Assembly (NCBI GenBank): GCA_964391445.1
Contig: CAYMJZ010000001.1
Location: 1 to 26,554, forward strand
Source of the DNA: Candidatus Woesearchaeota archaeon
GTDB lineage: Archaea > Nanobdellota > Nanobdellia > Pacearchaeales > GW2011-AR1
DNA: 26,554 nt
Direction: 5' to 3'
A program made the translations under genes and the position numbers. The notes beneath the pieces are model-generated. The model had not been told where the DNA came from. It searched no databases and saw nothing but the letters and a program-made list of their open reading frames with translations. This document shows, in pieces, positions 1-19,401 of the stretch. Position 1 is the first letter of the stretch, and every line of letters starts with the position of its first letter.

Positions 1-59
1 ATTGAAGCTAAAATAATGGATAGGATTAGTGTTGAGCCAATGTAGAATTTTTTGTTCAT
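1..59 (-). CDS. 5' end of a secreted/membrane protein (runs off the window start)
   Basis: ATG at 59..57 shares one base with the TAA of the upstream gene (TAATG). It reads MNKKFYIGSTLILSIILAS, a basic N-terminus plus hydrophobic stretch typical of a signal peptide. Not in the ORF track. Confidence 0.7.
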   Translation of the reverse strand, partial: MNKKFYIGSTLILSIILAS

Positions 60-958
60 TAACACTTACCTCCAATCATTAATCCAGCCTTATCAAAATA
101 AGAATTGAAATTAAGTTCTATACTATTAAATAATGGATCAGAATAAGACTCTCCTACAGCAAGACTTATTTTATCATTACCTTCATCAAACAATATTTCA
201 ATACTTACTATCCCTCCACTCTCTCCTTTAATCATATTTACTTTGGTTCCACTTACTAGTTCATTTCCAACGATAGCCTCTTTTCCATCTTGCAAACTAA
301 TTCTTCTATCATTAGAGATAAGATAAAGATCTGAATCGGTAGATTCACTGCCAATTATATACTCTTTTCCAAGAAGTTTTAGAACCTGTCCTTGAAGATT
401 TTTATTAGAAAAGTCCATATCTTGTGAGAAATATATAACATACTTGTAAAGGAAATCATCAGAATTTTGGGTTTTTATTAAGGTCTTTCCATCTTCATTA
501 ACTAATTTCCTATTCCCAATGTAGAGCATTTGAGCGTATTTGTATTCGAAAGGTTCATCATTAATTAATTCGATAAGCGAACCATCGGCAAGTAAATGTG
601 GAAGTAAGGTTTCAGTAAAAACTTCTCTCTGCATATTTATTGAGTTTCCAATAAATAAAGGTCTAGACATAGGAGCAAGGGCTATATCTTTGCATATATC
701 AATAGATTCCTTTGGAACACAAGCAGTCTTTATGCATTCATAATCCTCGGAACATTGAGAATCTTGCAAGCATTCCAAGTTAAGTCCAATTTTAGCTTTT
801 TCTAAATATGCTGAATCGATAGGTGTAGAAGTATAACTTATGACTTTGGTTTGAGAAAGTCCTAATTGTGCAATAATTATCAAAGATATAACTATTATTG
901 GCACAGCTAGTAAAGCTGTTCTCTTTTGATTCTTTTTAGTTTTAGAACTTTGTCGCAT
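59..958 (-). CDS. Membrane-anchored S-layer-like protein with a small Cys-rich module
   Basis: N-terminal TM helix and a 4-Cys module CLQDSQCSEDYECIKTAC. Segments LPHLLADG..YKYAQMLYIG, LKLLGKEYIIG and GESYSDPLFNSIELNF resemble archaeal S-layer protein segments as I recall them. Confidence 0.55.
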   Translation of the reverse strand: MRQSSKTKKNQKRTALLAVPIIVISLIIIAQLGLSQTKVISYTSTPIDSAYLEKAKIGLNLECLQDSQCSEDYECIKTACVPKESIDICKDIALAPMSRPLFIGNSINMQREVFTETLLPHLLADGSLIELINDEPFEYKYAQMLYIGNRKLVNEDGKTLIKTQNSDDFLYKYVIYFSQDMDFSNKNLQGQVLKLLGKEYIIGSESTDSDLYLISNDRRISLQDGKEAIVGNELVSGTKVNMIKGESGGIVSIEILFDEGNDKISLAVGESYSDPLFNSIELNFNSYFDKAGLMIGGKC

Positions 959-2486
959 TTATGAAATTCTCCACTTGACTAGTAATTTGAACAGAACTTA
1001 ACGAAGTATTCTGCCATATATTGACAATTCTTAATAATGAACTCATATTTATGGTAGTTTCTCCAGTATTATAGAAGTTAAATGCCCAAGTTTGATTATT
1101 CTTTATTGTCGCCTTATCAAAGCTACCTCTAAAATGTTGACCGTTTTCAGCTACAATATAGATCTTCTGATTACTGGAAACAGGATTATTTGGTAAAGAG
1201 TTATTGATTCCTATTGCAATAGCAGCACTCGCAGATCCATAATTAATTGTTAGCGAAGGTCTTTGACTTGGAGTTGGATGATCTCTCGCTGAAATTATTA
1301 TAGGAACTAGCAAATCGGTAGATAAACCAGTACTAAACCTCTTAGACCCATACAAAGACGAATTTAAACTGTTTAATGCTTGTTGGTTAAATGAAAGATT
1401 ATAAGAAGTATTAGCAACTGAACCTAGCAAATTAAGGTTTGAGTAAACAGTCCCATTAGCCATATCATTGTAAAATTGCTCATTTTCGGTCTGGTTATCA
1501 ATCCATTGACTACTATTCTTTTCTATATGAGTAATATTAATGTAATTAGAAGCGTTGGTACTTTCTATAAACAAGGTAAGATTAACTCCTATTATAGTAG
1601 CCACGTCTGATAAATTAACCAAATCAAATCTCCAGTCAATATCCCCTCGAGCTGCACCATTTCCTGGAATCCTGCCAAGTTGCAAAGTTGTTGGATTACT
1701 AAATCTAAATGGACCAATAGCATCATCATCAAAATCATAGCCAACCTTACCATTCCAAGCAATAGAAGAATTTCCTAGTACAAAACTCGGATCTATAACT
1801 AAAGGATAAACAAGCCCAGATCGATTCAAGAAAGACTGGGGGATAGTTAAAGAAACTTGATTACCAGAGAACGTATATTCTAGGTTCTTACAAATACCAC
1901 TATTATCACAGATAAAGGGGTCATCTAAACTAACTGAGTTACCTGTCAGATCAAAGATGGCATCTAAACTATGTTGAGAAATATTTTGTTTAATTATTAT
2001 TTCCCCTTTAAGTCTGTGAGGAAGATACTGATATCGCAAGTCAACGTTTGAGATTACATTTGGATAAGTAATGATGCTTCCGTCAATTATAGGGAGAGAT
2101 AAAGAAGTTACCGAAGTGTTTGCAAAACTTGACATTTGCTGAGTGAATTGTCCCTGATGTGAAGAAACCTCTAAGCGTCCATTGGAACCAGCAACAGCGT
2201 TGTAGTAATAGTCATTTGTACAAAAATCATTTCCGCAAGTGTGCCAATTCTCGTCTATTTCTTCCCATTCACCATCTCTGTTGAAGTATCTGTCATAGGA
2301 GAAAAAAGTAGTGATGCAGTTTGCACCAGTACAATAAGTCTCAAAATTACTTCCTTTGTTAACTAGCTGGTTTTCACCTGGAATTGTAGAATTAGTTCCC
2401 GGATTTGATATTTGAGCAGTTGTAAAAAAGATGAAAACAGATAGAAAGAGAAGAGATACTAAACCGAGAATCACCTTCTTGAGCAT
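942..2486 (-). CDS. Secreted surface protein, DNRLRE/CBM96-like domain
   Basis: Signal/TM N-terminus; rich in Asn/Ser/Thr with many N-x-S/T sequons. Motifs YPLVIDPS, IIGVNLTLFI and S.....RPSLTINY are typical of DNRLRE-domain surface proteins. TATA-like CTTATATA at 2514..2507. Confidence 0.55.
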   Translation of the reverse strand: MLKKVILGLVSLLFLSVFIFFTTAQISNPGTNSTIPGENQLVNKGSNFETYCTGANCITTFFSYDRYFNRDGEWEEIDENWHTCGNDFCTNDYYYNAVAGSNGRLEVSSHQGQFTQQMSSFANTSVTSLSLPIIDGSIITYPNVISNVDLRYQYLPHRLKGEIIIKQNISQHSLDAIFDLTGNSVSLDDPFICDNSGICKNLEYTFSGNQVSLTIPQSFLNRSGLVYPLVIDPSFVLGNSSIAWNGKVGYDFDDDAIGPFRFSNPTTLQLGRIPGNGAARGDIDWRFDLVNLSDVATIIGVNLTLFIESTNASNYINITHIEKNSSQWIDNQTENEQFYNDMANGTVYSNLNLLGSVANTSYNLSFNQQALNSLNSSLYGSKRFSTGLSTDLLVPIIISARDHPTPSQRPSLTINYGSASAAIAIGINNSLPNNPVSSNQKIYIVAENGQHFRGSFDKATIKNNQTWAFNFYNTGETTINMSSLLRIVNIWQNTSLSSVQITSQVENFINATKF

Positions 2487-2629
2487 AGCAATAGATGAAT
2501 TTCTTCTATATAAGGGTTGTGTTTATCCAACAACAGATTTTCTGGATAACCTATTCTTTGATAAATCCATCAAAATATTATTGATAAAATAATAAAAACA
2601 ATTAAAAAGGCTTATTTGTCAGAATTTTC

Positions 2630-3274
2630 ATGAACAGAAATTTGTTCTTAGATTATGGCGAACTTCTTTTCGCTTATCGTTTCAACCCAGCTACTCTTAG
2701 TAGGGCTCATCAACTAATGTTGCCTCAATTAGGAAGAGATTTTAGATTAGAAGATTTATCCACTGCACATAACCAAGCCATCCAAACTTATCTAAGAGCT
2801 AGGAAATCAGGCCAAGAATGGACAATGGAAAGAATTATGAGGCTATTCTTAGTTAATTTAGGAGTTAGGGATGAATCTCTTGTTGAAAAAGCAGTAAATA
2901 ATTACAAACTACATGACCATGATGAATTTCCATTACCAGGAATACCTCAATTAGTTCCTGAACTAACAAGAGACTTTTCATTACATATAGTTTCCAATCT
3001 TCCACATAATTCGCCTTTGAATACATTGACCAAATATGGTTTATCAGGACATTTCGCAACCACTACATTTTCCTATGAAGCAGGATTTAGAAAACCAAGA
3101 CCTGAGATATACCAGTTAGCATTACAAAGAGCAGGGTGCAGACCTGAAAGTGGAATATTCATTTCTCATGATCAAGAAGAGGTAGATGGAGCCAAAAGAG
3201 TTGGTATGCAAGCTTATCTTGCAACTAACGCGGATGAAATCCGAGGAGTTCTCCATGAAAATCCTGTACACTAA
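2630..3274 (+). CDS. HAD-superfamily hydrolase (subfamily IA-like phosphatase)
   Basis: Motif I FLDYGELL, motif II IVSN, motif III GFRKPRPEIY, and a degenerate motif IV FISHDQEEVDGAKRVGM. Confidence 0.85.
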   Translation: MNRNLFLDYGELLFAYRFNPATLSRAHQLMLPQLGRDFRLEDLSTAHNQAIQTYLRARKSGQEWTMERIMRLFLVNLGVRDESLVEKAVNNYKLHDHDEFPLPGIPQLVPELTRDFSLHIVSNLPHNSPLNTLTKYGLSGHFATTTFSYEAGFRKPRPEIYQLALQRAGCRPESGIFISHDQEEVDGAKRVGMQAYLATNADEIRGVLHENPVH

Positions 3275-4361
3275 TATCAGCCCAATTACTAATGCTTATA
3301 CAAATATTAATCATCTATTCTATCTAAAAAACCAAAAGCCTCAGAAAGTTTACTTGTGCATCTGGGACAATTATTTCTTTGAAAACACTATATTAGATCA
3401 ACATGATGAAAATTCTAAGAAAGAAACTCTAGAAAATAATGTAAAACTGCTGCAAAAAGTGATGGATCACTTAAGTATCAATTATAGAATCATTTACTTG
3501 TCAGATATGTGGCATAGACTTTTCAAAAACCCTAAAACTGCCAAAATTTACCAAAAAATCTTATCTTTAATCAATTTGGAACAATTAAGCAAAGGTTTTC
3601 TAATGAATTACACTCCATTTGGAGAAATAAGTCTATCAAAAATAAATTACATAATCGTAGATTACCTTGTATCAATTTATTTGCAAGAAATAGCACCTGA
3701 ACTATGCAATAGTCAGCCAACCCATTACTTAACCTCTGAAAGGTTCAAGGTTTTCAAAAGAGATATAGACCATGTCCTTAAACTAAATTCAATCTATTCT
3801 CCACCACTTCCGCTTTTTATTACAAAGGTACCAGTAATAATGCATCAAAAACAAAAGATTATCCCTTCTATGGGAATGTCAGTTGAAACAATTAAGCAGA
3901 TAATAGATTCAAATTATGCAGGCAAACTGCCAGAAAGAAAAGAAATTGAAGATTTGCTGGAAGTCTTATCAGAAGTAAATAGTAAAGTAGAATTAAGTGA
4001 AAAGTTAAGATATAACCAATTTATAGAAGCCTTAGCTAATGAGTTTTACACTTATTTCGAAAAGATTAATGATATAGCAGCAAAAGTCGAGATAAAGAAT
4101 CAGAAAAAGAGCATGTTTGTTTCAAAACATGAAGAATTTAACAAACAAATTAAACCTCTGAACAAAATAAAACTTGAGATACTAAAATTATGTGATGGGG
4201 AAAATACCAGCCTGGATATTTCTAAGAAGAGTGGGATAAAATTAAGCACTGTCTCAACTTATCTAACTCATCTAAAGAATAAAGGGTTACTTGATGAAGG
4301 CAAGAAACCTAAGAGATCGGTAGATAGCATCGTAATAAATTTGGAGTTGATGGGAGATTAA
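3255..4361 (+). CDS. Degenerate class Ic aminoacyl-tRNA synthetase (TyrRS-like) fold fused to a C-terminal ArsR-like winged helix; putative regulator
   Basis: Start moved to ATG 3255 (SD GAGGAG at 3243-3248), giving 368 aa. The N-terminal ~220 aa align by eye with archaeal TyrRS (see findings). The C-terminus LEILKLCDGENTSLDISKKSGIKLSTVSTYLTHLKNKGLL is a clear wHTH. Confidence 0.65.
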   Translation: MKILYTNISPITNAYTNINHLFYLKNQKPQKVYLCIWDNYFFENTILDQHDENSKKETLENNVKLLQKVMDHLSINYRIIYLSDMWHRLFKNPKTAKIYQKILSLINLEQLSKGFLMNYTPFGEISLSKINYIIVDYLVSIYLQEIAPELCNSQPTHYLTSERFKVFKRDIDHVLKLNSIYSPPLPLFITKVPVIMHQKQKIIPSMGMSVETIKQIIDSNYAGKLPERKEIEDLLEVLSEVNSKVELSEKLRYNQFIEALANEFYTYFEKINDIAAKVEIKNQKKSMFVSKHEEFNKQIKPLNKIKLEILKLCDGENTSLDISKKSGIKLSTVSTYLTHLKNKGLLDEGKKPKRSVDSIVINLELMGD

Positions 4362-4362
4362 A

Positions 4363-5619
4363 ATGACAGATCTAGTATTAATTAACAGTCCATTACAAAG
4401 ATATGAAAGAGCGAATAAGCCTTATTATTTTACAACTGCTCCAATAGGTTTAGGATATTTAGCTACCGTAGCCAGAAAACTTGGTTATCAAGCAGAAATA
4501 GTAGATGCGGAAGCAGAAAAACTGAGCCCAGATGAGATAGTAGAAAGAGTATCTGCAACAAACCCAAAGAGAGTAGGAATTAACATATTTTCAACTAATC
4601 ATCAATTATCTTTAGGAATATTAGATCAAATTGAAGCTCCTGTTAAGTTAGTCGGAGGACCACAAGCTACTTTACAACCAGAAAGAGTCAAGGGAGATTA
4701 TACTGTTGTTACAGGAGAAGCAGAAGAAGCTTTACCAAACCTCTTAAGAGACAATCCGAAAGGGATAGTTCATGGAGGAATAGTTCACGATCTTGATAGA
4801 TTACCTTTTGTAGATAGAGGTTTGTTCTCAAACGATCCTTACAGTACAAAAGGAGGCAAAGAAGCTTCCATGAGTACTGCAAGAGGATGTAGATTTAGTT
4901 GTGCTTATTGCTCTGTCCCTACAATTAATGGAAGAAAGATGAGGGCAAGATCTGTAGATAATGTTCTTGATGAAATAGAAGTTTTACAGCAAGGTGGAGT
5001 AAGAAGAATACATTTTATTGATGACTTATTCAATTATTCCAAAGATAGGGTCAGAGAATTCGCAGAAGGTCTTCAAAGAAGGGAAGTTAGGGTAGGTTGG
5101 CGAGCTTTATGCAGAACAGATAATCTTGATGAAAAATTACTTGAAGAAATGAAAGCAGCAGGTTGTTACAAACTTGCATTTGGAGTAGAGTCAGCAACAT
5201 CTAGGATATTGAAGTATATTGGAAAAAGTCAAGATACAGATCATACTAAAGCAGTTTTCAGAAAGTGTAAGGAATTAGGAATTGAAAGCAAAGGTTTCTT
5301 TACAATTGGATATCCTACTGAAACAAAAGATGAAATTGAGGAAACTATAAGGTTTGCTTTGGATCTTGAAGCTTCTGATGCAAGATTTATGGTGGTTAGA
5401 GCATTTCCAGAGACTAGATTATATGCAGATATGTTGGCAAAAGGATTTACCCATGAACAATTAGACACATACCATCAGTTTGAAACAGGTGGAGAACATG
5501 TTAAATACCATGTTATGAATATACATTCATTAAATGGAATGCCTATGGAAGAGCTAGATGAGTATGTCCGAAAAGCATATGAACGGTTCAATCTTCAACA
5601 AAAAGGAGTTGCAAAATGA
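4363..5619 (+). CDS. B12-binding-domain radical SAM protein (class B methylase-like)
   Basis: CxxxCxxC motif in TARGCRFSCAYC. N-terminal cobalamin-binding-like segment PIGLGYLA..IVDA..VGGPQAT, plus FIDDLF and FGVESAT motifs. Confidence 0.92.
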   Translation: MTDLVLINSPLQRYERANKPYYFTTAPIGLGYLATVARKLGYQAEIVDAEAEKLSPDEIVERVSATNPKRVGINIFSTNHQLSLGILDQIEAPVKLVGGPQATLQPERVKGDYTVVTGEAEEALPNLLRDNPKGIVHGGIVHDLDRLPFVDRGLFSNDPYSTKGGKEASMSTARGCRFSCAYCSVPTINGRKMRARSVDNVLDEIEVLQQGGVRRIHFIDDLFNYSKDRVREFAEGLQRREVRVGWRALCRTDNLDEKLLEEMKAAGCYKLAFGVESATSRILKYIGKSQDTDHTKAVFRKCKELGIESKGFFTIGYPTETKDEIEETIRFALDLEASDARFMVVRAFPETRLYADMLAKGFTHEQLDTYHQFETGGEHVKYHVMNIHSLNGMPMEELDEYVRKAYERFNLQQKGVAK

Positions 5620-6023
5620 AAATATATGTGGCCTATAAGTTGAGCGGAGTAGATTTCACAATTTTAAAGAAACGTCTAGAAGAAGTTTCTAAGATCATAG
5701 AAGAACTTGGGCATAAAAGCTTCATTTTTGTAAGAGATATACAACAATGGAAACCAGGAGGAATGGAACCTAAAGAAATAATGAAAAAAGCATTTGATCA
5801 AATGAAGAAGTGTGATGCAATTATCTCAATAATAGAGACTCAAGAAAAAGGAGAGGGTCTATTAATAGAAAGCGGAATGATGAAAGGATTGGGCAAGAAA
5901 GTTATTGTAGCATCAGGTCCTGAGGGAAGAGGATTTATGCTTAAAGGTATGGCCGATGAGTCTTTTGACTTCAAAGAGATTGATGAATTTAAGAAAAAAT
6001 TGGCAAAAATACTAAAGAATTAG
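5616..6023 (+). CDS. Nucleoside 2-deoxyribosyltransferase / nucleotide N-glycosidase-like protein
   Basis: KIYVAY start, CDAIISII, and GLLIESGMMKGLGKKVIV containing the family catalytic Glu pattern (G..xExG.a.a.gKpv). ATGA overlap with the radical SAM gene and SD AAGGAG upstream. Confidence 0.75.
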   Translation: MKIYVAYKLSGVDFTILKKRLEEVSKIIEELGHKSFIFVRDIQQWKPGGMEPKEIMKKAFDQMKKCDAIISIIETQEKGEGLLIESGMMKGLGKKVIVASGPEGRGFMLKGMADESFDFKEIDEFKKKLAKILKN

Positions 6024-6077
6024 TTTTGATGAATTCGTGAAGCCAGCATTAATATAAAATAAATATCTTAATCTTAT

Positions 6078-6374
6078 ATGAAAAGCACAGAAAAACAAAT
6101 CCGTGAAGATGTGCTCTCTTATCTTCAACCAAAAAACACTCTTCAAATAAAAGGAAGGTTGTGTTATAAAGAAAGGGTGGGGGCTTGGAATATACTTCAT
6201 TTAAGAAAGGAGATACTTACATTATTTCCAGAATTAAGACAAAAACGTCAAAACTTTGGATACGCGATGTATTACTCAAGAGATTCTAAAGAAACAAAGA
6301 AAATGTTGGAGCAGTTAGAAAAACAAGGAGTAGTACCTATTATTCTTTTATTGGGCAGAGTTAAAGAAAATTAA
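6078..6374 (+). CDS. Hypothetical protein (98 aa)
   Basis: Open frame with TTAATATA at 6049-6056 (-29..-22). No family recognised; only a faint AbrB-like look. Confidence 0.6.
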   Translation: MKSTEKQIREDVLSYLQPKNTLQIKGRLCYKERVGAWNILHLRKEILTLFPELRQKRQNFGYAMYYSRDSKETKKMLEQLEKQGVVPIILLLGRVKEN

Positions 6375-6410
6375 GACATGATTTATAAATAAGTTAAAAC
6401 CACTAATTAT

Positions 6411-6548
6411 ATGGAAGGGTTAGCTAAATGTGAAGGATGCGGAAAATTAGTTTCTGAAGATAAAATTGATCGCTATGGTGAATGTAATGACTGTAGGGCT
6501 TCGGATAGAGCCGGAGAAATGACTGTTGGAGACTTAGGTGGTAAATAA
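6411..6548 (+). CDS. 45-aa zinc-finger microprotein (CxxC-x14-CxxC)
   Basis: MEGLAKCEGCGKLVSEDKIDRYGECNDCRASDRAGEMTVGDLGGK*, with TTTATAAA at 6382-6389 (-29..-22). Below the ORF-track length cutoff. Confidence 0.75.
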   Translation: MEGLAKCEGCGKLVSEDKIDRYGECNDCRASDRAGEMTVGDLGGK

Positions 6549-6601
6549 TAAAGAAACCTATAGATATATAAGTTTAGGGACATACATTGTCTTAGAGGTG
6601 A

Positions 6602-7780
6602 ATGATGGAATCTGTTTCAATTAATATATTGGAAAACACTCAGTTAGCTCATTCTCAGTTTAAAGAAGAAAAAAGTCTAGCTTGGAAAGAATTGCCTAAA
6701 AATGCCAACAAACTCCATACTATTTGTAGTTATATGGCTATGTTTCCCCCTTCAGTACCAAATCATTTTATTAGAAAATATTCAAAACCAGGGGATTTTG
6801 TTTTAGATGTATTTTCTGGTAGAGGCACTACTGTTTTAGAAGCTTGTGTAGAAGGAAGAATAGGAATAGGCAATGATAAAAGCCCATTAGCATTTCTTTT
6901 AACAAAGGCTAAAGTAAATGTTCCGTTAAAATCTACTATAATTCGTAGAATTAATGAACTTCAAAGAAATTTTATGAAAGTATCAGAACAAATCGATATA
7001 GCTAATGAAGAAGAAAATATAAAAATGATCTTCCATGATTATACTTTAAAACAATTAGTTTTTTTGAAGAAAGAATTAGACTGGAAGAAAAATAGCGTTG
7101 ATGCATTTATAACGGCTTTAGTGGAAGGGATAATTCATGGAGGTTCTGAAGGTTATCTATCTTTAAGTATGCCTAATACTTTCTCCATGTCCCCCAATTA
7201 TGTAAAAAATTATATCTCAGATAAAAAATTAATAAAACCTAAAAGAGAAACTTTTGATTTGCTCTTAAGAAAACTTGAAAGGTGTTACCAAAGGCCTTGG
7301 CAAAAAGGAATATCTTATAGAAGTGATGCAAGAAAAATCACAAAAATTGAAGATTCCTGTATAGACCTTATAATTACTTCTCCGCCTTATCTTAGAGTTA
7401 TAAAATATGGGCAATATAATTGGATAAGAGTCTGGTTTTTAGGAGAGAATTGTAAAAAGGTAGACCAAAGCTTGTTTTTCTCCCAATCTTTAGATAAATA
7501 CTGTAATTTTATGAAAGAAGTTTTAAAAGAAATGCAAAGAGTCCTGAAACCTAATAGTAAAGCTGTCTTAGTTATAGGGGATGTAAGAAATAAATTTGGA
7601 GATCATATAGAAAATTTGGCCGAACAAGTATGGGAAAGATGCGCTAAACCTCTTGGATTTAATTTAGTAGAACCAATTATTGAGGATATTATAAGTGATA
7701 ACGAAAAAGTATCTAAAATATGGGGCAAAAAACGTGGAAATGCAACAAAAATAGATAGAGTCTTAATAATTGAAAAGTAA
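6602..7780 (+). CDS. Site-specific DNA amino-methyltransferase (alpha motif order, SPPY; probably N4-cytosine)
   Basis: SAM-binding motif I VLDVFSGRGTT lies N-terminal, then a long variable region, then catalytic motif IV DLIITSPPY. SD GAGGTGA at 6595-6601, so the second ATG (6605) may be the true start. Confidence 0.9.
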   Translation: MMESVSINILENTQLAHSQFKEEKSLAWKELPKNANKLHTICSYMAMFPPSVPNHFIRKYSKPGDFVLDVFSGRGTTVLEACVEGRIGIGNDKSPLAFLLTKAKVNVPLKSTIIRRINELQRNFMKVSEQIDIANEEENIKMIFHDYTLKQLVFLKKELDWKKNSVDAFITALVEGIIHGGSEGYLSLSMPNTFSMSPNYVKNYISDKKLIKPKRETFDLLLRKLERCYQRPWQKGISYRSDARKITKIEDSCIDLIITSPPYLRVIKYGQYNWIRVWFLGENCKKVDQSLFFSQSLDKYCNFMKEVLKEMQRVLKPNSKAVLVIGDVRNKFGDHIENLAEQVWERCAKPLGFNLVEPIIEDIISDNEKVSKIWGKKRGNATKIDRVLIIEK

Positions 7781-7782
7781 AT

Positions 7783-8451
7783 CTATCTTTTATTATGTCT
7801 TATTGCATCAAATTGAGACTTAAACTTTTCTTCTAGAATTTTAATAAAAGTTCTTAACTCAATTATTCTCTCCTTTGTAATTGGTTTATTTTGAGAAGAC
7901 TTTCCCCTTATTAGGGATTCTGCATTGTTTTCTTTTAAATAATTTAAAGATTCTTCTACTATATTATTTATGTAATTTAATATCTTATTAAGGGTTCCAA
8001 AATCATATTTGTTTAATTTTAGAAAAGATGCTACATCTAACCAGTTATCAGGTAATGACTTATTTAAAAAATAAGTTTCAAAAATAGGATTTTTAACATA
8101 GACTGAGATCGCCTCATATAAATTAACATTTCTCTTTTCTGATTGGCTTATATCTAAGAGAGACTTTGCCTTAACAAGTCCTAATTGAGTTATTTTATAA
8201 TGATTTGGTCTAGTCCTTTCGATCCAACCCTTACTTACTATCTTTTGTGTCCCCCTAGCCATAACTTCATTCATGACTCTTTTATGATCTGGATATTCTT
8301 CATGGCCTTGGAGACCCCATCTATTTTTATTTAATTTCCAAGCTTCAACTGTTAAATCCCATTCAGTGAATTCTTTAAGAGAATCAGTAGATAATCTGAA
8401 AGCTGCTAACAAGACCTCTTCAGTAGAGCTTAGACTTGTTTTAATATTCAT
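7783..8451 (-). CDS. Winged-helix domain protein with helical C-terminus
   Basis: wHTH-type ending VSKGWIERTRPNHYKITQLG. Overlaps the GHKL gene by 11 bp and converges on the MTase with a 2-bp gap. Confidence 0.65.
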   Translation of the reverse strand: MNIKTSLSSTEEVLLAAFRLSTDSLKEFTEWDLTVEAWKLNKNRWGLQGHEEYPDHKRVMNEVMARGTQKIVSKGWIERTRPNHYKITQLGLVKAKSLLDISQSEKRNVNLYEAISVYVKNPIFETYFLNKSLPDNWLDVASFLKLNKYDFGTLNKILNYINNIVEESLNYLKENNAESLIRGKSSQNKPITKERIIELRTFIKILEEKFKSQFDAIRHNKR

Positions 8452-10798
8452 CTTCTTTATGAGACTGCATTAAGCTATTTATTATTTGTTGTGCCAAATC
8501 TAAAAATTCAGATGATTCAGTTTCAGATTGAGATAATCTTTGCAATGTCTCTATAAAAGTGATGGAAGAATCTGAAATTTTTTGTTTCAGCTTAAGTCTT
8601 TTTAGTATTTCAAAACACTTTACTAAAAGAAAGTCTTGAAAAGTCTTTGATTTCATTCCAACTAATCTTTTTTCTGTACCCATTTCCCTAATTTTTTTAG
8701 CTTCCTTACTACGCGCATTAATCCAAATTATTGCTGGAGGAATATTAAGCCAAAATGGTTCTGAATCAATGATTGTAGGATAAGATTCACCTGCAGGAAT
8801 AGTTCTTTGATTTTCAGGCCAGTTTTCTCTTCCAGGGGCTATATCTCCACAAAACATTATCAAAGGAATATCAGAACTATTTTTATCTTCTGTTTTTTCT
8901 TTTCCAACTTTTAATAGTATTTTTTTAAAATCTTCTTCTCCTTCGCCATATCTTATTCTTATAGTTGCAATACCTTCCTGAGTTCCAGCAATAAACGTAC
9001 CAGATCGATTTATTTTACCCATCCCTTCCTCATCAATAGAAGTCTCAAAAAAAACATTTTCTTTCATTTGACCATCTTCAGTAATTCCTATGATATTTAT
9101 ATCAAATCTCTCTCCTTGTTTAATTAACCTATTTTCGTAATTAACTTGAATATCCTTCAGTTTAACAATATGCACCTCCACCTTATTAGATTTTATCTTA
9201 GCATCTCTGGTTTCTAGGTGGGCTTTTGTTATACCATCTTGCTCACCCTTAATTGAATTTCTAGTTATCAAATCAACAATGTCTCTTTCAGAGTTAATAA
9301 AAAATGGTGGCAGGGATTTCAAGGGAAGTCTCTTTTCTTTATCTAATTCATATCCCTTAATAATAATTGGAACATTTACACCATGAGCTATTTTTAATAC
9401 CTGAGTTTCTTTAGATTCTAAGATTATTTCATCCAATCTTTGACCCCATTTAATATTTATTTCTCTTTTTCTTTGAGAATTATTTTCTCCATCATTTAGA
9501 TTGTTTTCGTTATTTTGTTCTAAAAATTTAGACATTAATTCCCTAATTTTGTCAAGTGCCTTTGAAGCTTTTAATTTATCTTCACTAGACTCCTTCTCTG
9601 ATTGTAGTTCCTGAATATTGGAGATTACCTCGTTTAACATTTTAATAGTCCAGTGACGAAGAGCCCTAGTTAAAGCTGAATCTACTAATGTCATTCTAGT
9701 AGAGCCATCCTGATATTCCTCGGTTAATGCTGCACAAACAAGTTTGGCATGTATAAAACCAGACATAGTAGTAGGAGCCAGGTCAGCAATACTCCAATTG
9801 GCCACAATATTTCGATTATTCCATATTCGGACCACATTTCTAGCCTTTAATGTATCTGTGTTTCGTAAATTTTGATTGCAAGGAAAAATCTGTAATCCAT
9901 CTTTGTCAGTTACATTCAGCTTGATAATCTCTCCAGTTGTAGGATCCTCCAACTCATTTGGTAGTTGCAAAAACTTGATCTCTTTTAATTCAGACATAGG
10001 TTCTAATTCGGTAACTTCTAAAGGTTTGGGATAAACAAGTTTGCTCCCTTTTTGAACCCAAACAAAGCAGGTTTCAATAGTGAGAGAAGCTTGTGCATGA
10101 GACATTAAATCTGCAGGAACCATTCTTATTTTCCTGTCTCTAGTAAACTCATCTACTTTCTTCCAGTCCTTTAAGTCATACAAATGAACTAATGTAAATG
10201 ACTTTCTTTTTAGAAAAGAATTTTTAGCATCTAATGGAAGTTGATCAAAACTTATGCCAAATGGTTCTATCTCTTTATTCAAAACTTTTTTGAAATCTTC
10301 ATCCTTTAGATCACTTATTAAATCTTTATCTTTTGTTTTAAAAGTTACTGTTTTATATTTAAGATCTTTAAGATCGTTAATAAAACCTTTTTTGTTTATC
10401 TTTCCATTAATATAACCGCATAGACTAGATTTCTTTAAACAGCCCCTTACCATAAAAGATTTACCTCCGTTTCCAAAACCAGCTTCAATATTTTCAGACA
10501 TTTCCTTTCTATTTGCAGTTTGACTATTCCATTCTTCCCATCCATCAAAGTCAGAAAGCTGAGCACCAGCAAAATCAAGAACTCCTAATTGAGTTTTATC
10601 TTCAGAAATAATAACTACAATTTGCCTTTCATTCTTATCTTTTACGTTAAGTCTAAAATAGTGATCCTTACTGTTTTTTATTAATTCTGGTAAACCATCT
10701 TTTATAGATTGATATCTGGAAGATAATTGATCTAAACCATGAATCATATTCATTTTTATTGTTTCAGAAGCCTTAAAATCAATTTCCTTAGCAGTCAT
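8441..10798 (-). CDS. GHKL (MORC/MutL/Hsp90-like) ATPase with coiled coil and two Ig-like (Big_2-type) repeats
   Basis: N-box ELIKNSKD, divergent G1 VLDFAG, G2 AGFGNGGKS, and a strand FTLVHL at the motif IV position. Coiled coil at about aa 390-430. Ig-like segments ..IKGEQDGITKAHL.. and ..INRSGTFIAGTQEGIATIRIRY.. Confidence 0.75.
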   Translation of the reverse strand: MTAKEIDFKASETIKMNMIHGLDQLSSRYQSIKDGLPELIKNSKDHYFRLNVKDKNERQIVVIISEDKTQLGVLDFAGAQLSDFDGWEEWNSQTANRKEMSENIEAGFGNGGKSFMVRGCLKKSSLCGYINGKINKKGFINDLKDLKYKTVTFKTKDKDLISDLKDEDFKKVLNKEIEPFGISFDQLPLDAKNSFLKRKSFTLVHLYDLKDWKKVDEFTRDRKIRMVPADLMSHAQASLTIETCFVWVQKGSKLVYPKPLEVTELEPMSELKEIKFLQLPNELEDPTTGEIIKLNVTDKDGLQIFPCNQNLRNTDTLKARNVVRIWNNRNIVANWSIADLAPTTMSGFIHAKLVCAALTEEYQDGSTRMTLVDSALTRALRHWTIKMLNEVISNIQELQSEKESSEDKLKASKALDKIRELMSKFLEQNNENNLNDGENNSQRKREINIKWGQRLDEIILESKETQVLKIAHGVNVPIIIKGYELDKEKRLPLKSLPPFFINSERDIVDLITRNSIKGEQDGITKAHLETRDAKIKSNKVEVHIVKLKDIQVNYENRLIKQGERFDINIIGITEDGQMKENVFFETSIDEEGMGKINRSGTFIAGTQEGIATIRIRYGEGEEDFKKILLKVGKEKTEDKNSSDIPLIMFCGDIAPGRENWPENQRTIPAGESYPTIIDSEPFWLNIPPAIIWINARSKEAKKIREMGTEKRLVGMKSKTFQDFLLVKCFEILKRLKLKQKISDSSITFIETLQRLSQSETESSEFLDLAQQIINSLMQSHKEDEY

Positions 10799-11766
10799 TC
10801 TATATCTCCTATAATCGTATAATCATTGCGTTTATTTTTTATAATCCCAATTTCACGAAGTAAAGAGATTTTTCCAGAACTAAATGTTTGTGCTAAATTG
10901 TTTATCTGTTTTTCAAAAGCTTTAGGATTATCTTTTTTACCACTCCATGCTTCAATATACTTGATAAAAGAAGGATTCTTTTTGAACCAAGCCCATAAAT
11001 CTTTGTTGCCATTATTTCCATTTTTAATGAAAAAGAATATTTCCTTTAATAAAGTATATTCTTTAAAACCTTTTTTGTCTATTTCTCTTAAATATTGAAG
11101 TAACCATTCACTTTCAACAACTGTTAAAGTCTGATCTTCATAATTCTTTTCATCAAAAACTTTGTTAGACAATCTAGAAAAGGCTAATCCTTCTTCAGTA
11201 GGGCGTATAAGAATATTCTTCCAATCTTCACTCCAAATTTTTTCTCCTTCCATTTTCTTTAGAGGCTTTATCTCAAATAATCCCATTTTATGAAATCCAT
11301 CTATAAAATGATAGACGAGTCTACCAACAGATGAGTCAGCAGTTACATCATTTGGAAAACCCTTAAGTTTGGTGAGTTTATTGTAAAGAATCGTATTTTT
11401 AGCGCATTCTATGAGGTCGAATAAGGAAATATAATCTTTCTTAGTTTCATTTAGTAGATTAGCATTTATTCTAAGCAAAGCTTTTCCAGAAAAAAAGTCA
11501 TTGACCATTCCCCATAAACCAACTATGCTAGTTTCATGATCAGAGATCACCTTTCCCTTTGATAACTTAAGATATGAAGGAATTATTAAATAATCATTCT
11601 TAGATAATTCTTTTGAACCTACATTATCAATTTTAGGAAGAGAATCATTTGTAAACATATGCTTCCCAAAACCGCACAAAGGGCATCTTTCAGAATTTTT
11701 TTGAAAATCAAACTCTGTATTACAGCGACCACATTTCACTCTGTTTTCTTTAGAAAATAATGCCAT
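10795..11766 (-). CDS. Zn-ribbon plus tandem winged-helix-like protein
   Basis: CGRC-x12-CPLC at the N-terminus. Two wHTH-like endings (FHKMGLFEI..IRPTEEGLAF; LLREIGIIKNKRNDYTIIG). ATGA overlap with the GHKL gene. Confidence 0.6.
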   Translation of the reverse strand: MALFSKENRVKCGRCNTEFDFQKNSERCPLCGFGKHMFTNDSLPKIDNVGSKELSKNDYLIIPSYLKLSKGKVISDHETSIVGLWGMVNDFFSGKALLRINANLLNETKKDYISLFDLIECAKNTILYNKLTKLKGFPNDVTADSSVGRLVYHFIDGFHKMGLFEIKPLKKMEGEKIWSEDWKNILIRPTEEGLAFSRLSNKVFDEKNYEDQTLTVVESEWLLQYLREIDKKGFKEYTLLKEIFFFIKNGNNGNKDLWAWFKKNPSFIKYIEAWSGKKDNPKAFEKQINNLAQTFSSGKISLLREIGIIKNKRNDYTIIGDIE

Positions 11767-11785
11767 AGGTTAAGTATTTTGAGTT

Positions 11786-11819
11786 ATATGTTAAACATAT
11801 AGCAATATATTCAACATAT
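11786..11819. promoter_or_regulatory. Tandem 15-bp palindromic operator-like sites overlapping the promoter of the GHKL operon
   Basis: ATATGTT-A-AACATAT (11786-11800, perfect) and ATATATT-C-AACATAT (11805-11819, one mismatch). The minus-strand TATA-like TTTAACAT at 11795..11788 sits at -29..-22 from ATG 11766. Confidence 0.65.
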
Positions 11820-11904
11820 TAGTATTTAAACTTTGTTCCTAAAGATTTATCTCTCTTAAAGAGTAAAATGGGAAAAGATTAGACATTTCAAAAGAATTGT
11901 TAAA

Positions 11905-13107
11905 TCAATTTTGAGAAATAGTTTTTAATTGCATGGCTATCTCAACTCTTTTTTCATAAGGAACTATGGAAAATAATTTATCGATCATTTTTTCTACTAT
12001 TCTTATTTTATTGTTTAAATCTTTAATTTCATCTTGCATTATTAACTTTTCATTCTCTGATTTTGTAAGTCTTTGTTCTATTTCCGTCTTAGTGATATCC
12101 ATTAACATATCCTCTTGTGAAATTGTGTCTCGCATGCCTAGAAGTTCAGAGTAATAATGGATTTTCTCAGACTTTTTCCATCCAAACCTATATTTTAATG
12201 CAGATTCTGACTTATATCTAGGTAACCAATAACAGCAGGAATTATGCCTAAAATCATACATAGTTAATTCAGAGTATCTCTGACCAGCTGGACTAATTTT
12301 ATCTCCAAAAAGCTTTTTAGCAAGCCTCTTTAATGTTTTATTAACACTATCATAATTAATAGGAAAAATGTAATCTTCGGCCTGTAAATTCATTTGTTTC
12401 ACATAGATTTTAATTAAATTAGAAGAAAGCATAAGCTTAATTCTTCTGCCAAATGTTTTACTTATTTCCTCCCTGATATTAAGTTCTTTAAAATCATTAT
12501 AAAAATCAGATACTTTTAAGTTTATCAATTCAGTTGGAGCTCTTACTCCCGTATCAAACAAAAACCAAATTAAAACTTCATACTTATACTCCGCATTAAC
12601 ACAAAGTTGCTTTATTTGGTCTTCTGTTAAATATACCCAGTCAGGCTTTTCCTTACTCGTATCTAGATCAACAGTAATATCCCTTATATCAACACCCTTT
12701 TTACGATTAACTTTCATGTACCAATGCCAAAAAGCTTTGAAATCTTTTACATAATCTCCTGCGGTTTTGTAAGTTTTACCGTTTTTTCTTTTTACAACCC
12801 CATTACGAATATCTGAAAGTAAAGCAAATAAATGTTGCTCTTCCAATTCAGTAATATTAAGATGAAATCTTTCCTGTAATCCTCTAACAAGACCTACTAA
12901 ACGTATACTTAATGTGCTTAAACGCATAGGACTTCTTCCGCCTTTTTTATTAGTTGAAGCTACATTAAGCCCTTGTTCCATATCTTGAAGGTATTGCATA
13001 ATAATTTGAGAATTGGCGCGTGTCAAGCCTGAAATGCCGTTTTCTAAGGCTTTGTCTTTCCACTTTAGATATTTCTCTTTAGTTTTGTAAGGATCGATCT
13101 TAACCAT
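11905..13107 (-). CDS. Tyrosine recombinase/integrase with C-terminal coiled coil
   Basis: Catalytic set: R in FDTGVRAPTEL, K in SKTFGR, YDFRH (YxxR variant of HxxR), W in RFGW, and Y in IHYY. Confidence 0.9.
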   Translation of the reverse strand: MVKIDPYKTKEKYLKWKDKALENGISGLTRANSQIIMQYLQDMEQGLNVASTNKKGGRSPMRLSTLSIRLVGLVRGLQERFHLNITELEEQHLFALLSDIRNGVVKRKNGKTYKTAGDYVKDFKAFWHWYMKVNRKKGVDIRDITVDLDTSKEKPDWVYLTEDQIKQLCVNAEYKYEVLIWFLFDTGVRAPTELINLKVSDFYNDFKELNIREEISKTFGRRIKLMLSSNLIKIYVKQMNLQAEDYIFPINYDSVNKTLKRLAKKLFGDKISPAGQRYSELTMYDFRHNSCCYWLPRYKSESALKYRFGWKKSEKIHYYSELLGMRDTISQEDMLMDITKTEIEQRLTKSENEKLIMQDEIKDLNNKIRIVEKMIDKLFSIVPYEKRVEIAMQLKTISQN

Positions 13108-13223
13108 CGACAGAATGTTTGATCTAATTTATTTTTAAGTATTGTCGAGAATGATTGGATGTATTGACAAGCATCAGTTCGCTTTATTAGCCTACTTCAC
13201 ATGATTTGGATCATACAACAATA

Positions 13224-13351
13224 TGCGCGGGCCGGGAATTGAACCCGGGCCACAACATCTTTGCTTTTCTCTCTTCTGTAAAGCGAAGAGTTGGAAATTC
13301 TTCAATTTCCAGATTGGCAATGTCGTATACTAACCACTATACTACCCGCGC
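13224..13351 (-). tRNA. tRNA-Gly(GCC) with 56-nt intron at 37/38 (intron 13259-13314)
   Basis: Acceptor stem GCGCGGG/CCCGCGC plus A73; anticodon stem CGACA/TGTTG with loop TT-GCC-A|A; T arm CCGGG-TTCAATT-CCCGG; 4-nt variable loop. No encoded CCA. Confidence 0.95.
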
Positions 13352-13369
13352 TTAAAAGATACTGGACTG

Positions 13370-13388
13370 AAAGGTTTTATAAAGCTTT
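13370..13388. promoter_or_regulatory. Palindromic TATA box probably shared by the divergent tRNA-Gly and tRNA-Val genes
   Basis: AAAGGT-TTTATAAA-GCTTT, with a self-complementary TTTATAAA core at 13376-13383 and purine-rich BRE-like flanks on both strands. Confidence 0.55.
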
Positions 13389-13412
13389 ATTTTGATTTCA
13401 ATTATGAGATAC

Positions 13413-13513
13413 GGCCCACTAGTCTAATGGTAGAACATCTCGTTTACATGGACTTTTGTTAATACAAAACCCTAAAACCCGAGGAGGCGGAGGTTCGATT
13501 CCTCCGTGGGCCA
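13413..13513 (+). tRNA. tRNA-Val(TAC) with 30-nt intron at 37/38 (intron 13449-13478)
   Basis: Acceptor stem GGCCCAC/GTGGGCC plus A73; anticodon stem TCTCG/CGAGG with loop TT-TAC-A|C; T arm GGAGG-TTCGATT-CCTCC. BHB: TTTA pairs with TAAA, bulges CA|T and AC|C, outer pairs GG/CC. Confidence 0.95.
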
Positions 13514-13573
13514 TTTCAAACTCCGTAGCGAGCTTCCGAGCATGTTGAGGAGAGCGAGCAAGAGAGGTTGAAA
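13514..13573. repeat. 60-bp inverted-repeat-bounded GC-rich element directly after tRNA-Val
   Basis: Arms TTTCAAACTC (13514-13523) and GAGGTTGAAA (13564-13573) are 9/10 complementary. The interior holds two AGCGAGC copies. Confidence 0.4.
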
Positions 13574-13581
13574 TTAATATT

Positions 13582-13818
13582 ATGAAAAAAGAAATCTGGT
13601 TTAAAAGAAAAAGATATGGTTGGGGATGGTATCCGTCAACATGGCAAGGTTGGATGGTTATTCTAGGATTCCTAATATACTTATTATTAGCAATTAGTTA
13701 TTTCATTCCAAAAAATCAAATATGGCAATATATCCTTACAGTAATTATAGGCGTAATAATTTTAATCTATATTTGTTACAAAAAAGGCGAAAAACCAAAA
13801 TGGTCTTGGGGAGATTAG
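13582..13818 (+). CDS. Small two-TM membrane protein (WFKRKRYGWGWYPSTWQGW motif)
   Basis: Trp/Gly-rich N-terminal motif that I recognise from a widespread uncharacterised family, followed by two hydrophobic helices. Confidence 0.8.
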   Translation: MKKEIWFKRKRYGWGWYPSTWQGWMVILGFLIYLLLAISYFIPKNQIWQYILTVIIGVIILIYICYKKGEKPKWSWGD

Positions 13819-14120
13819 GCTACTTTTAGCCTTAAATCTGATATTTTCTTTTTTAGCCTAGCCTTCTCATCTCCATTTTCAAATGATTCTCTTCTTGTAT
13901 AGAATCTAGGACCTGAGTCAAAAATAATTCTTGTTCCTTTATCATCTGTAATCATTAACTTATATCCGTGTCTTATTTTTCCATCTGTTTGTTCATATAA
14001 ACTGAAAGAAATAGACGATCTTCTAAGCCCATAAGTAGGGCTAAACAAAACAAGCCTATCTCCATTCGAACTAAAGCATTTTCCTATTGTTTCTCTCTGA
14101 ATTTCCATTGGGTCGTACAT
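13815..14120 (-). CDS. Hypothetical protein (101 aa)
   Basis: Start moved from GTG 14141 to ATG 14120 because CTTAAATA lies at 14149..14142 (-29..-22). Confidence 0.6.
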   Translation of the reverse strand: MYDPMEIQRETIGKCFSSNGDRLVLFSPTYGLRRSSISFSLYEQTDGKIRHGYKLMITDDKGTRIIFDSGPRFYTRRESFENGDEKARLKKKISDLRLKVA

Positions 14121-14238
14121 GGGATAACTGTAAAGTAACACTATTTAAGGCTTTTTTAATTCACTCTTATGAGTAAATAACCCCTTGATAATAGTTACAA
14201 TTAGGAAGATTTATATATGGATAAAAAATCATAATTTT

Positions 14239-14727
14239 ATGAGAAAAACATTGTTTGCAATATTGATGGTACTGGAATTAATACTAATATTTAGCTTGGG
14301 CTTTATATCTTCAATAGTGATCTATCAAAATAGCCTAGCAGAATTTCCCCTTTCTATAAACAGTCATGAGGAGGCCTCACCTTCTAATTATGTTGATGAA
14401 AAAAGCATCCTAGTATACAAAGACAGAGTAGTAATACTTTTGGATAATCCTTCATTAAGTAAATATGCTGATACAAATAGCATGTTGCCAGTTTTAGATG
14501 CTGGAGCCAATGGGATAAAAGTAATACCAAAAAATGAGAAAGATATCAGAATAGGAGACATAGTATCATTTGAATTTGAAGATAAAATGGTAGTTCATAG
14601 AGTAGTAAGTATTGGGGAAGATAGTGATGGAACTTACTTCATCACTAAAGGAGACAATAACCAATATCAAGATGAGAAAATAAGATTCAAAGACATAAAG
14701 TCAAAAACTATTGCAATAATATACTAA
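14239..14727 (+). CDS. Signal peptidase I, archaeal/SEC11 type (S26)
   Basis: TM anchor, catalytic Ser in TNSMLP, GDIVSF, His in VVHRVV, and TKGDNN. Start moved to ATG 14239 (TTTATATA at 14210-14217). Confidence 0.85.
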   Translation: MRKTLFAILMVLELILIFSLGFISSIVIYQNSLAEFPLSINSHEEASPSNYVDEKSILVYKDRVVILLDNPSLSKYADTNSMLPVLDAGANGIKVIPKNEKDIRIGDIVSFEFEDKMVVHRVVSIGEDSDGTYFITKGDNNQYQDEKIRFKDIKSKTIAIIY

Positions 14728-19330: not shown

Positions 19331-19401
19331 GGGCCCATATTATAGTGGCATTATACGCCCATGGCATGGGTGAGACTCGAGTTCGATTCTCGATGGGTCC
19401 A
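19331..19401 (+). tRNA. tRNA-Ala(GGC), intronless
   Basis: Acceptor stem GGGCCCA/TGGGTCC with G3:U70 and A73; anticodon stem CGCCC/GGGTG with loop AT-GGC-AT (A32-U38); T arm TCGAG-TTCGATT-CTCGA. Confidence 0.93.

Follow-up and report, generated by a model that had tools for sequence, protein, structure and literature searches.

A mobile cassette that joins a DNA methyltransferase to a GHKL ATPase and a winged-helix partner: a candidate restriction–modification-like system in a tiny archaeal genome

What acts on foreign DNA when a DNA methyltransferase is accompanied by a GHKL ATPase? This question is raised by a mobile cassette of four genes and about 5.2 kb (positions 6602-11766) in the tiny genome of an archaeon assigned to Candidatus Woesearchaeota. 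The cassette lies in the stretch of 26,554 nucleotides that was analysed here, which we call the window. We believe, with somewhat more conviction than doubt, that the locus is a horizontally mobile, restriction–modification-like immunity (or addiction) cassette of the MORC/paraMORC kind, known here from its genes alone. Probably it serves to distinguish own from foreign DNA in a manner not characterised so far. Its elements are as follows.

6602-7780, plus strand: DNA methyltransferase, 392 residues, PF01555
7783-8451, minus strand: winged-helix core partner, 222 residues
8441-10798, minus strand: GHKL ATPase, whole gene, 785 residues
8444-8887, minus strand: ATPase residues 638-785, family-specific C-terminal domain
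8888-9448, minus strand: ATPase residues 451-637, two immunoglobulin (Ig)-like domains (Big_2-like)
9584-10798, minus strand: ATPase residues 1-405, GHKL (Bergerat) ATP-binding domain and S5-fold transducer
10795-11766, minus strand: accessory first gene, zinc-ribbon protein, 323 residues
11786-11819, strand not applicable: tandem palindromes, candidate operator in the operon promoter

The six-frame list of open reading frames gives one protein of 392 residues on the plus strand and three of 222, 785 and 323 residues on the minus strand. The minus-strand genes overlap, the partner and ATPase genes by 11 bp and the ATPase and zinc-ribbon genes by 4 bp, and this operon lies tail to tail with the methylase gene, with 2 bp between the stop codons. 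Thus, the genes, both overlaps and the convergent gap described in the original prediction for 6602-11766 were all confirmed.

Are these genes found together elsewhere? We assembled 107 loci from scans of GTDB genomes and JGI metagenomes, plus identity look-ups. When ATPases that were at least 95% identical were collapsed, and a full-length ATPase and at least 2.3 kb of downstream sequence were required, 47 non-redundant loci were left. The winged-helix partner lies directly downstream of the ATPase in 46 of them. A methyltransferase of the PF01555 family lies within 5 kb of the ATPase in 45, so the proposed linkage of the methyltransferase to the GHKL operon held in other genomes; at 36 loci the methyltransferase is convergent and directly follows the partner. 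Three genes make up the conserved core: those for a PF01555 methyltransferase that carries SPP[YF], for an ATPase of about 785 residues and for a winged-helix partner of about 222 residues. Minimal loci, such as L026, consist of these three and have no further conserved gene.

Some relatives carry additional genes. At L005:3023-7969, L055, L060, L063, L066 and L095, an McrB-like AAA_5 protein (about 575 residues) and a 409-residue protein of no known family stand between the methylase and the ATPase; either the pair is a restriction module that was added on, or the system itself is larger there. A locus from Bathyarchaeia (L024:3451-12519) has a DUF2130 protein, an 856-residue protein of no known family between partner and methylase, and an 86-residue Hjc-like protein. 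The last has the Holliday-junction-resolvase fold and lies directly upstream of the ATPase, which makes this the only relative with a nuclease-type match in the operon. At L021:926-4936, both the ATPase and the methylase are fragmented.

The methyltransferase matches PF01555 (E 2e-21) and, over its full length, the PADLOC Type II methyltransferase model (E 7e-41). Motif I (DVFSGRGT) is in the N-terminal part and motif IV, SPPY, is at residues 260-263, as was claimed for this protein; motif I thus comes before motif IV, a permutation of the arrangement that PF01555 usually has. In motif IV, the serine form is the hallmark of N4-cytosine enzymes. The PF01555 fold, the SPP[YF] form of motif IV and the S-adenosylmethionine-binding motif I are all present, and this suggests that the methylase is of the N4-methylcytosine (m4C) type. 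Among 70 linked methyltransferases of at least 280 residues, motif IV reads SPPF in 57, SPPY in 12 and DPPF in one. These enzymes have two permuted architectures: one is PvuII-like and has motif IV close to the N-terminus; in the other, to which the window enzyme belongs, it falls in the C-terminal half. As SPP[YF] is kept in 69 of 70 over both architectures, the system appears to depend on a single kind of mark and not on a particular methyltransferase lineage. In some relatives a small ribbon-helix-helix (RHH) gene adjoins the methyltransferase gene.

Additionally, the cassette moves as a unit. DNA similarity of 82% to a second species of the genus covers window positions 6681-11836 and nothing outside them, and this transferred block comprises the four genes and their promoter. 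A search with the ATPase gave a hit in one of the genus's 16 other species. It gave none in the 24 further relatives that were searched, nor in a phylum-wide sample of 300 high-quality genomes. Archaea of several lineages and bacteria from at least eight phyla nevertheless have members of the ATPase family, which occurs in Pacearchaeota, Woesearchaeota, Bathyarchaeia, the Candidate Phyla Radiation (CPR), Planctomycetota, Acidobacteriota, Alphaproteobacteria, Chloroflexota, Bacillota and Armatimonadota. Its neighbours elsewhere are of the conflict type: integrases, serine recombinases, PIN-MazE, HEPN, and the McrB-like AAA_5 gene with the 409-residue gene.

These results bear on two other explanations. 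The genes could be chance neighbours, with an ordinary methyltransferase, solitary or Type II, that has no functional link to the ATPase operon next to it. We give this almost no credence: although the genes are convergent rather than co-transcribed, and methyltransferases are common in islands, the methyltransferase recurs at nearly all loci over many phyla, mostly in the same position; the linked enzymes share one form of motif IV; and the block shared between species holds all four genes and the promoter and nothing else. It is also improbable that the locus has nothing to do with immunity and is an epigenetic housekeeping or repair module that reads the methyltransferase's marks, for instance in a MutL-like methyl-directed process, in chromosome organisation or in gene regulation. 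Such a module fits poorly with the patchy spread within the genus and phylum, with homology between species that is confined to the cassette, and with the integrase, recombinase, toxin–antitoxin and McrB-like neighbours, which typify accessory conflict genes.

The 785-residue ATPase has no Pfam match at E values up to 10, and none in NCBIfam or PADLOC. In an alignment of 33 homologues, E38, N42 and D45, the stretch D75-F-x-G78-A79 and the stretch G109-N-G-G-K113 are invariant; they correspond to the N, G1 and G2 boxes of the Bergerat ATP site. The protein has all the marks of the GHKL (Bergerat-fold) family: motif I (ExxxNxxD), motif II (DxGxG), a glycine-rich lid (motif III) and the fold itself. 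It also belongs to the GHKL-with-S5 subgroup, as a second domain with the S5 fold comes after the ATP-binding domain. To about residue 400, the model aligns with the N and M domains of MORC3, GRP94, MutL and topoisomerase II. The best structural matches of residues 1-405 are MORC2/3/4, SMCHD1, MutL, Hsp90 and topoisomerase II/VI, at about 11-14% identity, and the resemblance to MORC, Hsp90 and MutL is about equal.

The ATPase had been described as MORC-like. This proved true of its fold, but not of features specific to MORC. The MORC S5 motif GhXhhpXXRhl (quoted from PMC2292703) was found by regular-expression search in none of the 33 members, and HATPase_c_3 (PF13589) gave no match at E up to 10 in the window ATPase and none in the 33 members. 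The link to HATPase_c_3 is an ESM-Atlas feature resemblance to HATPase_c_3 clusters and nothing else. Likewise, the ExxxH motif of paraMORC2 is in 0/33 and the HxH motif of paraMORC5 in 1/33, and the C-terminal domains of paraMORC3 (restriction-endonuclease (RE) fold) and paraMORC4 (TIR) gave no family match in searches made by sequence only. The ATPase is MORC-like in fold only.

The C-terminal part of the ATPase is peculiar to this family. Residues 375-427 form a long helical hairpin ahead of the Ig-like domains, and in residues 638-785 DSSP finds three long helices after a small alpha/beta unit. In this last domain D/E678 is conserved in 32 of 33 members, and N694, S697, E699, K727 and E/D730 each in all 33; there is no conserved histidine. 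Its profile gave 75 hits among 1.84 billion representatives, all of them from the ATPase family, where the domain stands only at the C-terminus, or fragments of it. Structure predictions were made for the full ATPase and for the winged-helix partner, and the fold of residues 638-785 was searched only inside the whole 785-residue model, where the matches cover residues 1-637. The domain had no match in these whole-model searches and no sequence match in the PDB. In PDB profile searches the whole ATPase matched only Ig-like proteins, and the C-terminal domain gave spurious zinc-finger hits. We regard it as a candidate dimerisation and/or catalytic domain. A PD-(D/E)xK centre was considered for it and rejected: E699 opens a helix instead of lying in a strand, and the family keeps no (D/E)xK.

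The partner had been claimed to be a winged-helix DNA-binding protein, and the winged-helix fold was indeed found in this 222-residue protein, at residues 1-103; a helical domain makes up the C-terminal part. All 41 homologues keep H56-K57-R58, where the third helix begins, and N83 and Y85 in the wing. The best PDB match by Foldseek is the kleisin MukF, a weak one (E 0.02). The top AlphaFold-DB cluster is named ‘Mrr-like N-terminal domain’ (E 1e-5), and MarR and PadR folds score equally. The name Mrr_N is carried by ESM-Atlas rows, and PF14338, the family of the Mrr_N/HARE-type winged helix that reads modified DNA, is touched by one of the 41 homologues (E 0.012).

Structure prediction had been suggested as a check on the proteins and their complexes. 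Searches with the models matched no nuclease in ATPase residues 1-637 or in the partner. The verdict on the complex of the two was ‘weak support’, with a score of 0.38 against 0.01 for the best control. The mark for this score is reached by 58 of 80 solved complexes and by 2 of 110 mismatched pairs, and scores of 0.60 or less count as weak. As a hint only, the model of the complex puts the helical domain of the partner on the Ig domains of the ATPase.

Is there a nuclease in the cassette? No nuclease fold was found in the whole-model searches of the ATPase or in the partner. The claim that the locus has no recognisable nuclease thus holds for the parts searched by fold, ATPase residues 1-637 and the partner; for the C-terminal domain and the zinc-ribbon protein it holds at the level of sequence. 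No PADLOC restriction endonuclease model matches the three proteins other than the methyltransferase, so that the locus does not qualify as a Type II restriction–modification system. The named systems of PADLOC-DB v2, including BREX, Shedu, Mza, Tiamat and MADS, likewise contributed no family for the 222-, 785- and 323-residue proteins. Pfam, NCBIfam and PADLOC together returned only a zinc ribbon and weak winged helix-turn-helix hints for these three, and it was borne out that none of these databases has a known system model that covers them.

We propose a model in which the methylase would mark host DNA at its sites, probably with N4-methylcytosine. The ATPase would dimerise constitutively via its C-terminal helices, and ATP binding would join the GHKL heads to form a clamp, as in MutL, Hsp90 and MORC. 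We picture a dimeric, ATP-operated clamp because MutL, Hsp90, MORC and topoisomerase ATPases behave in this way. The Ig domains may widen the lumen of the clamp, and the helical domain of the partner may dock on them so that the winged helix is offered to DNA. The zinc-ribbon protein, or the proteins that substitute for it, could recognise sites and/or repress the operon through the promoter palindromes. Unmethylated incoming DNA would be captured and inactivated, whereas methylated host DNA would be protected; we assign these roles by analogy with restriction–modification systems.

How could captured DNA be inactivated? The option we put first, at somewhat less than an even chance, is that the C-terminal alpha/beta domain cuts the DNA with a catalytic centre that has escaped recognition (conserved D/E678, E699, K727). 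We consider it because such domains are the nuclease in MutL, GyrB, paraMORC3/VcSduA and Tiamat. In a rarer variant, the alpha/beta domain and the invariant wing tyrosine of the partner would form a topoisomerase/Spo11-like cleavage centre. Obstruction or compaction of DNA without a nuclease is a more tentative option, and the recruitment of an unlinked host nuclease is an unlikely one.

Taken as an account of the whole system, the second option says that the ATPase and its partner form a methylation-gated clamp, which would leave unmethylated DNA uncut but compact it or block its replication or transcription. It would then resemble BREX or the silencing by eukaryotic MORC and SMCHD1. This account is in keeping with the lack of a nuclease fold in residues 1-637 and in the partner, with the minimal three-gene loci, with a C-terminal domain that has no histidine and whose acidic residues do not fit PD-(D/E)xK, and with the weak match of the partner to MukF. 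We nevertheless find it doubtful. Every GHKL protein that has so far been shown to act on DNA in defence or repair does so together with a nuclease (MutL, topoisomerases, VcSduA, Tiamat), and the invariant polar residues N694, S697, E699 and K727 would be needless in a mere dimerisation domain. Moreover, a missing match is weak evidence for a domain of 148 residues that was searched within a 785-residue model. It is equally doubtful that the cassette holds a prokaryotic functional counterpart, and possibly an evolutionary cousin, of MORC/SMCHD1 silencing.

Several observations weigh against the immunity cassette that we favour. The helix of the partner is invariant across systems that would need different targets, so it cannot be the sequence reader; this argues that the partner may read a generic feature (the backbone, the methylation state or a protein) rather than a target sequence. 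The predicted complex of ATPase and partner is weak, and no nuclease or other effector fold was identified in the parts searched. The m4C assignment follows from the SPP[YF] motif alone. At L007:11010-11992 the methyltransferase is split by a frameshift while the ATPase is intact. A sequencing error is just as possible; a real frameshift would speak against self-restriction that is lethal. Last, the family is rare: at 50% identity, the 1.84 billion representatives contain about 60 clusters of it. It too is known from genes alone.

GHKL ATPases in methylase operons have been predicted before: Iyer, Abhiman and Aravind (2008; PMC2292703) described prokaryotic MORC and paraMORC1-5 ATPases, with GHKL and S5 domains, in such operons. 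The locus had been put forward as undescribed; this is right for the family but not for the kind. Like the ATPases of PMC2292703, the one studied here has GHKL and S5 domains, intact ATP motifs, sporadic lateral spread and DNA methylases, mostly cytosine-specific ones in that set, as neighbours; a minority of those operons also lack helicases. It differs in having no HATPase_c_3 match, no MORC S5, paraMORC2 or paraMORC5 motif, and no C-terminal RE or TIR domain that could be found. Its own marks are a pair of Ig domains, a C-terminal domain private to the family, the obligate winged-helix partner, the rule that the methylase carries SPP[YF], and the lack of a helicase or nuclease gene.

Two related proteins have been validated in defence. 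VcSduA (paraMORC3, Shedu type I-D) is an anti-phage GHKL protein whose ATPase activity is needed (PMC12137116), and its middle region is clamp-like, as here. VcSduA consists of one protein, which carries a DUF4263 PD-(D/E)xK nuclease, and has no methylase, in contrast to an ATPase with a methyltransferase and a partner, and none of the cassette proteins matches DUF4263 or the PADLOC Shedu models. Tiamat combines a GHL ATPase with a PD-(D/E)xK NOV_C nuclease (bioRxiv 10.64898/2026.09.30.754977). It too has a predicted clamp that dimerises at both ends, and some types adjoin DNA methyltransferases. These are mostly adenine-specific and occur only together with helicases, unlike here, and the TPR-like, DUF3684 and metalloprotease-like folds and the C-terminal nuclease of Tiamat have no equivalent in the cassette.

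Type II restriction–modification systems with a PvuII-like m4C methylase and a controller share the convergent gene pair, the PF01555 SPP[YF] methylase, a palindromic operator in the promoter of the genes other than the methylase and, in some relatives of the cassette, the small RHH gene by the methyltransferase. However, the ATPase and winged-helix pair stands where their restriction endonuclease would be, and no nuclease can be recognised. BREX resembles the cassette in methylation-dependent discrimination of self from non-self, in its ATPase components and in having no identified nuclease (PMC11341690). The cassette is far smaller, its ATPase is GHKL rather than AAA+/Lon, and it has no PglZ, BrxC, BrxL or PglX; PglX appeared only as a secondary match to the methyltransferase domain in PADLOC. 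In MORC2/3/4, SMCHD1, MutL, Hsp90 and topoisomerase II/VI, ATP-driven N-terminal dimerisation is combined with constitutive C-terminal dimerisation, which we infer for the ATPase studied here. Compared with these proteins, its middle and C-terminal domains are different, and it has no CW domain, SMC hinge, MutL endonuclease or recognisable Toprim domain.

If functional, the cassette would be a compact immunity system that uses a MutL/MORC-type ATP clamp in place of a restriction enzyme and is gated by cytosine-N4 methylation. This would make testable an 18-year-old prediction, according to which the MORC-like ATPases of prokaryotes manipulate DNA and read its methylation, and it would bear on the origin of eukaryotic MORC and SMCHD1 silencing. 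The cassette could turn out to hold a nuclease fold not seen before or, following BREX, to be the second case of a methylation-dependent defence that does not cleave DNA. Little is known about defence in the DPANN archaea and CPR bacteria that carry it, and bacterial homologues, such as those of Methylobacterium (L006), Sphingomonadales (L010) and Exiguobacterium (L009), could be tested in standard hosts.

What does the first gene of the operon contribute? The 323-residue protein begins with a four-cysteine zinc ribbon, in which C12, C15, C28 and C31 are invariant, and the following 270 or so residues have no detectable family; the two winged helix-turn-helix domains proposed for this protein are putative. 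A PDB profile search with the family gave only ribosomal L37e-type ribbons, and the protein has a weak language-model resemblance (ESM-Atlas, 0.79) to the recognition domains of AlwI, FokI and BpuJI. An HNH centre in the ribbon was considered and rejected, as the CxxC pairs are 12 residues apart, which is too short for the beta-beta-alpha-Me core. The protein is a candidate DNA-recognition adaptor or operon controller. We scored three recurrent families (88-residue helical, about 209-residue and zinc-ribbon) in the gene upstream of the ATPase at 55 assessable loci, and found them at 15, 10 and 9 loci, respectively, with no recurrent family at the other 21. Thus, the linkage of methyltransferase, ATPase and partner stood, but the idea that all four genes belong together did not: the first gene is an exchangeable accessory and not part of the core.

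The commonest upstream gene in bacterial cassettes (A3, for example L010:7703-7951) encodes about 85 residues and is apparently mostly helical. The A3 protein has conserved F..A..R, GNLSN, Y, K and C-terminal F-x-L positions and no family match.

The zinc-ribbon protein was also considered as a specificity subunit matched to the methyltransferase. Between the window cassette and a locus from Woesearchaeota, the zinc-ribbon protein and the methyltransferase are both 55-67% identical, which would fit such a role, whereas the ATPase and partner are about 25-30% identical. Two observations speak against it, and the pairing is not established: close methyltransferases also occur with the 88-residue upstream gene (L029, L030, L032), and zinc-ribbon homologues also head operons with C5 methylases. 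The uneven identities point to a cassette that was reassembled from two modules.

The other operons headed by zinc-ribbon homologues are at L107:5001-10680, L108:1990-7681 and L110:5001-10969. In L107 and L108 the order is a 66-residue protein, a protein of 817-821 residues, a 253-residue protein, Vsr and a convergent C5 cytosine methylase; in L110 it is proteins of 829 and 259 residues, a convergent 569-residue protein without a known family, and Vsr. A relation of the large proteins (817-829 residues) to the ATPase has no support from BLAST, hhalign, Pfam or the PDB; GHKL-like motifs can be read in them by eye, and this is a lead only. PADLOC has no family for the alternative upstream genes or for the large and partner proteins of these operons, which may be a sister system with a common adaptor.

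The promoter palindromes, tandem copies of ATATGTT-N-AACATAT, recur 5' of the orthologous first gene in two archaeal cassettes (L001:6960-7010 and L025:1445-1500) and in one from a CPR bacterium (L022:6990-7030). Cassette homology to L001 ends at 11836. The palindromes look like a candidate operator that travels with the zinc-ribbon type of cassette, and their recurrence fits autoregulation by a cassette protein.

Beside the cassette are two features that we list as context only.

11905-13107, minus strand: tyrosine-recombinase-like integrase, 400 residues
13224-13351, minus strand: intron-containing tRNA beside the integrase, Rfam RF00005, 51.7 bits

Both the integrase and the tRNA that were said to adjoin the cassette are therefore present. 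The integrase has no Pfam match of its own, and aligns with a 401-residue PF00589 integrase of another locus (E 3e-9). It lies outside the block of cassette homology, and the orthologous cassette in L001/L027 has no such gene next to it. A search of window positions 1-14500 for an att-type direct repeat of the tRNA was negative. There are in fact two divergent tRNA genes here, evidently with introns, at 13224-13351 (minus strand, 128 nt) and 13413-13513 (plus strand, 101 nt). Rfam finds each at about 52 bits, and both are missed by ARAGORN, which reports only a tRNA-Ala at 19331-19401. On the other side of the cassette, a plus-strand operon at 2630-6023 encodes a protein with a winged helix-turn-helix, a B12-binding radical-SAM enzyme and a protein like nucleoside 2-deoxyribosyltransferase. 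The radical-SAM gene matches the PADLOC candidate family PDC-M51A (E 1e-20), and this operon, the cassette and the integrase may form a small defence island.

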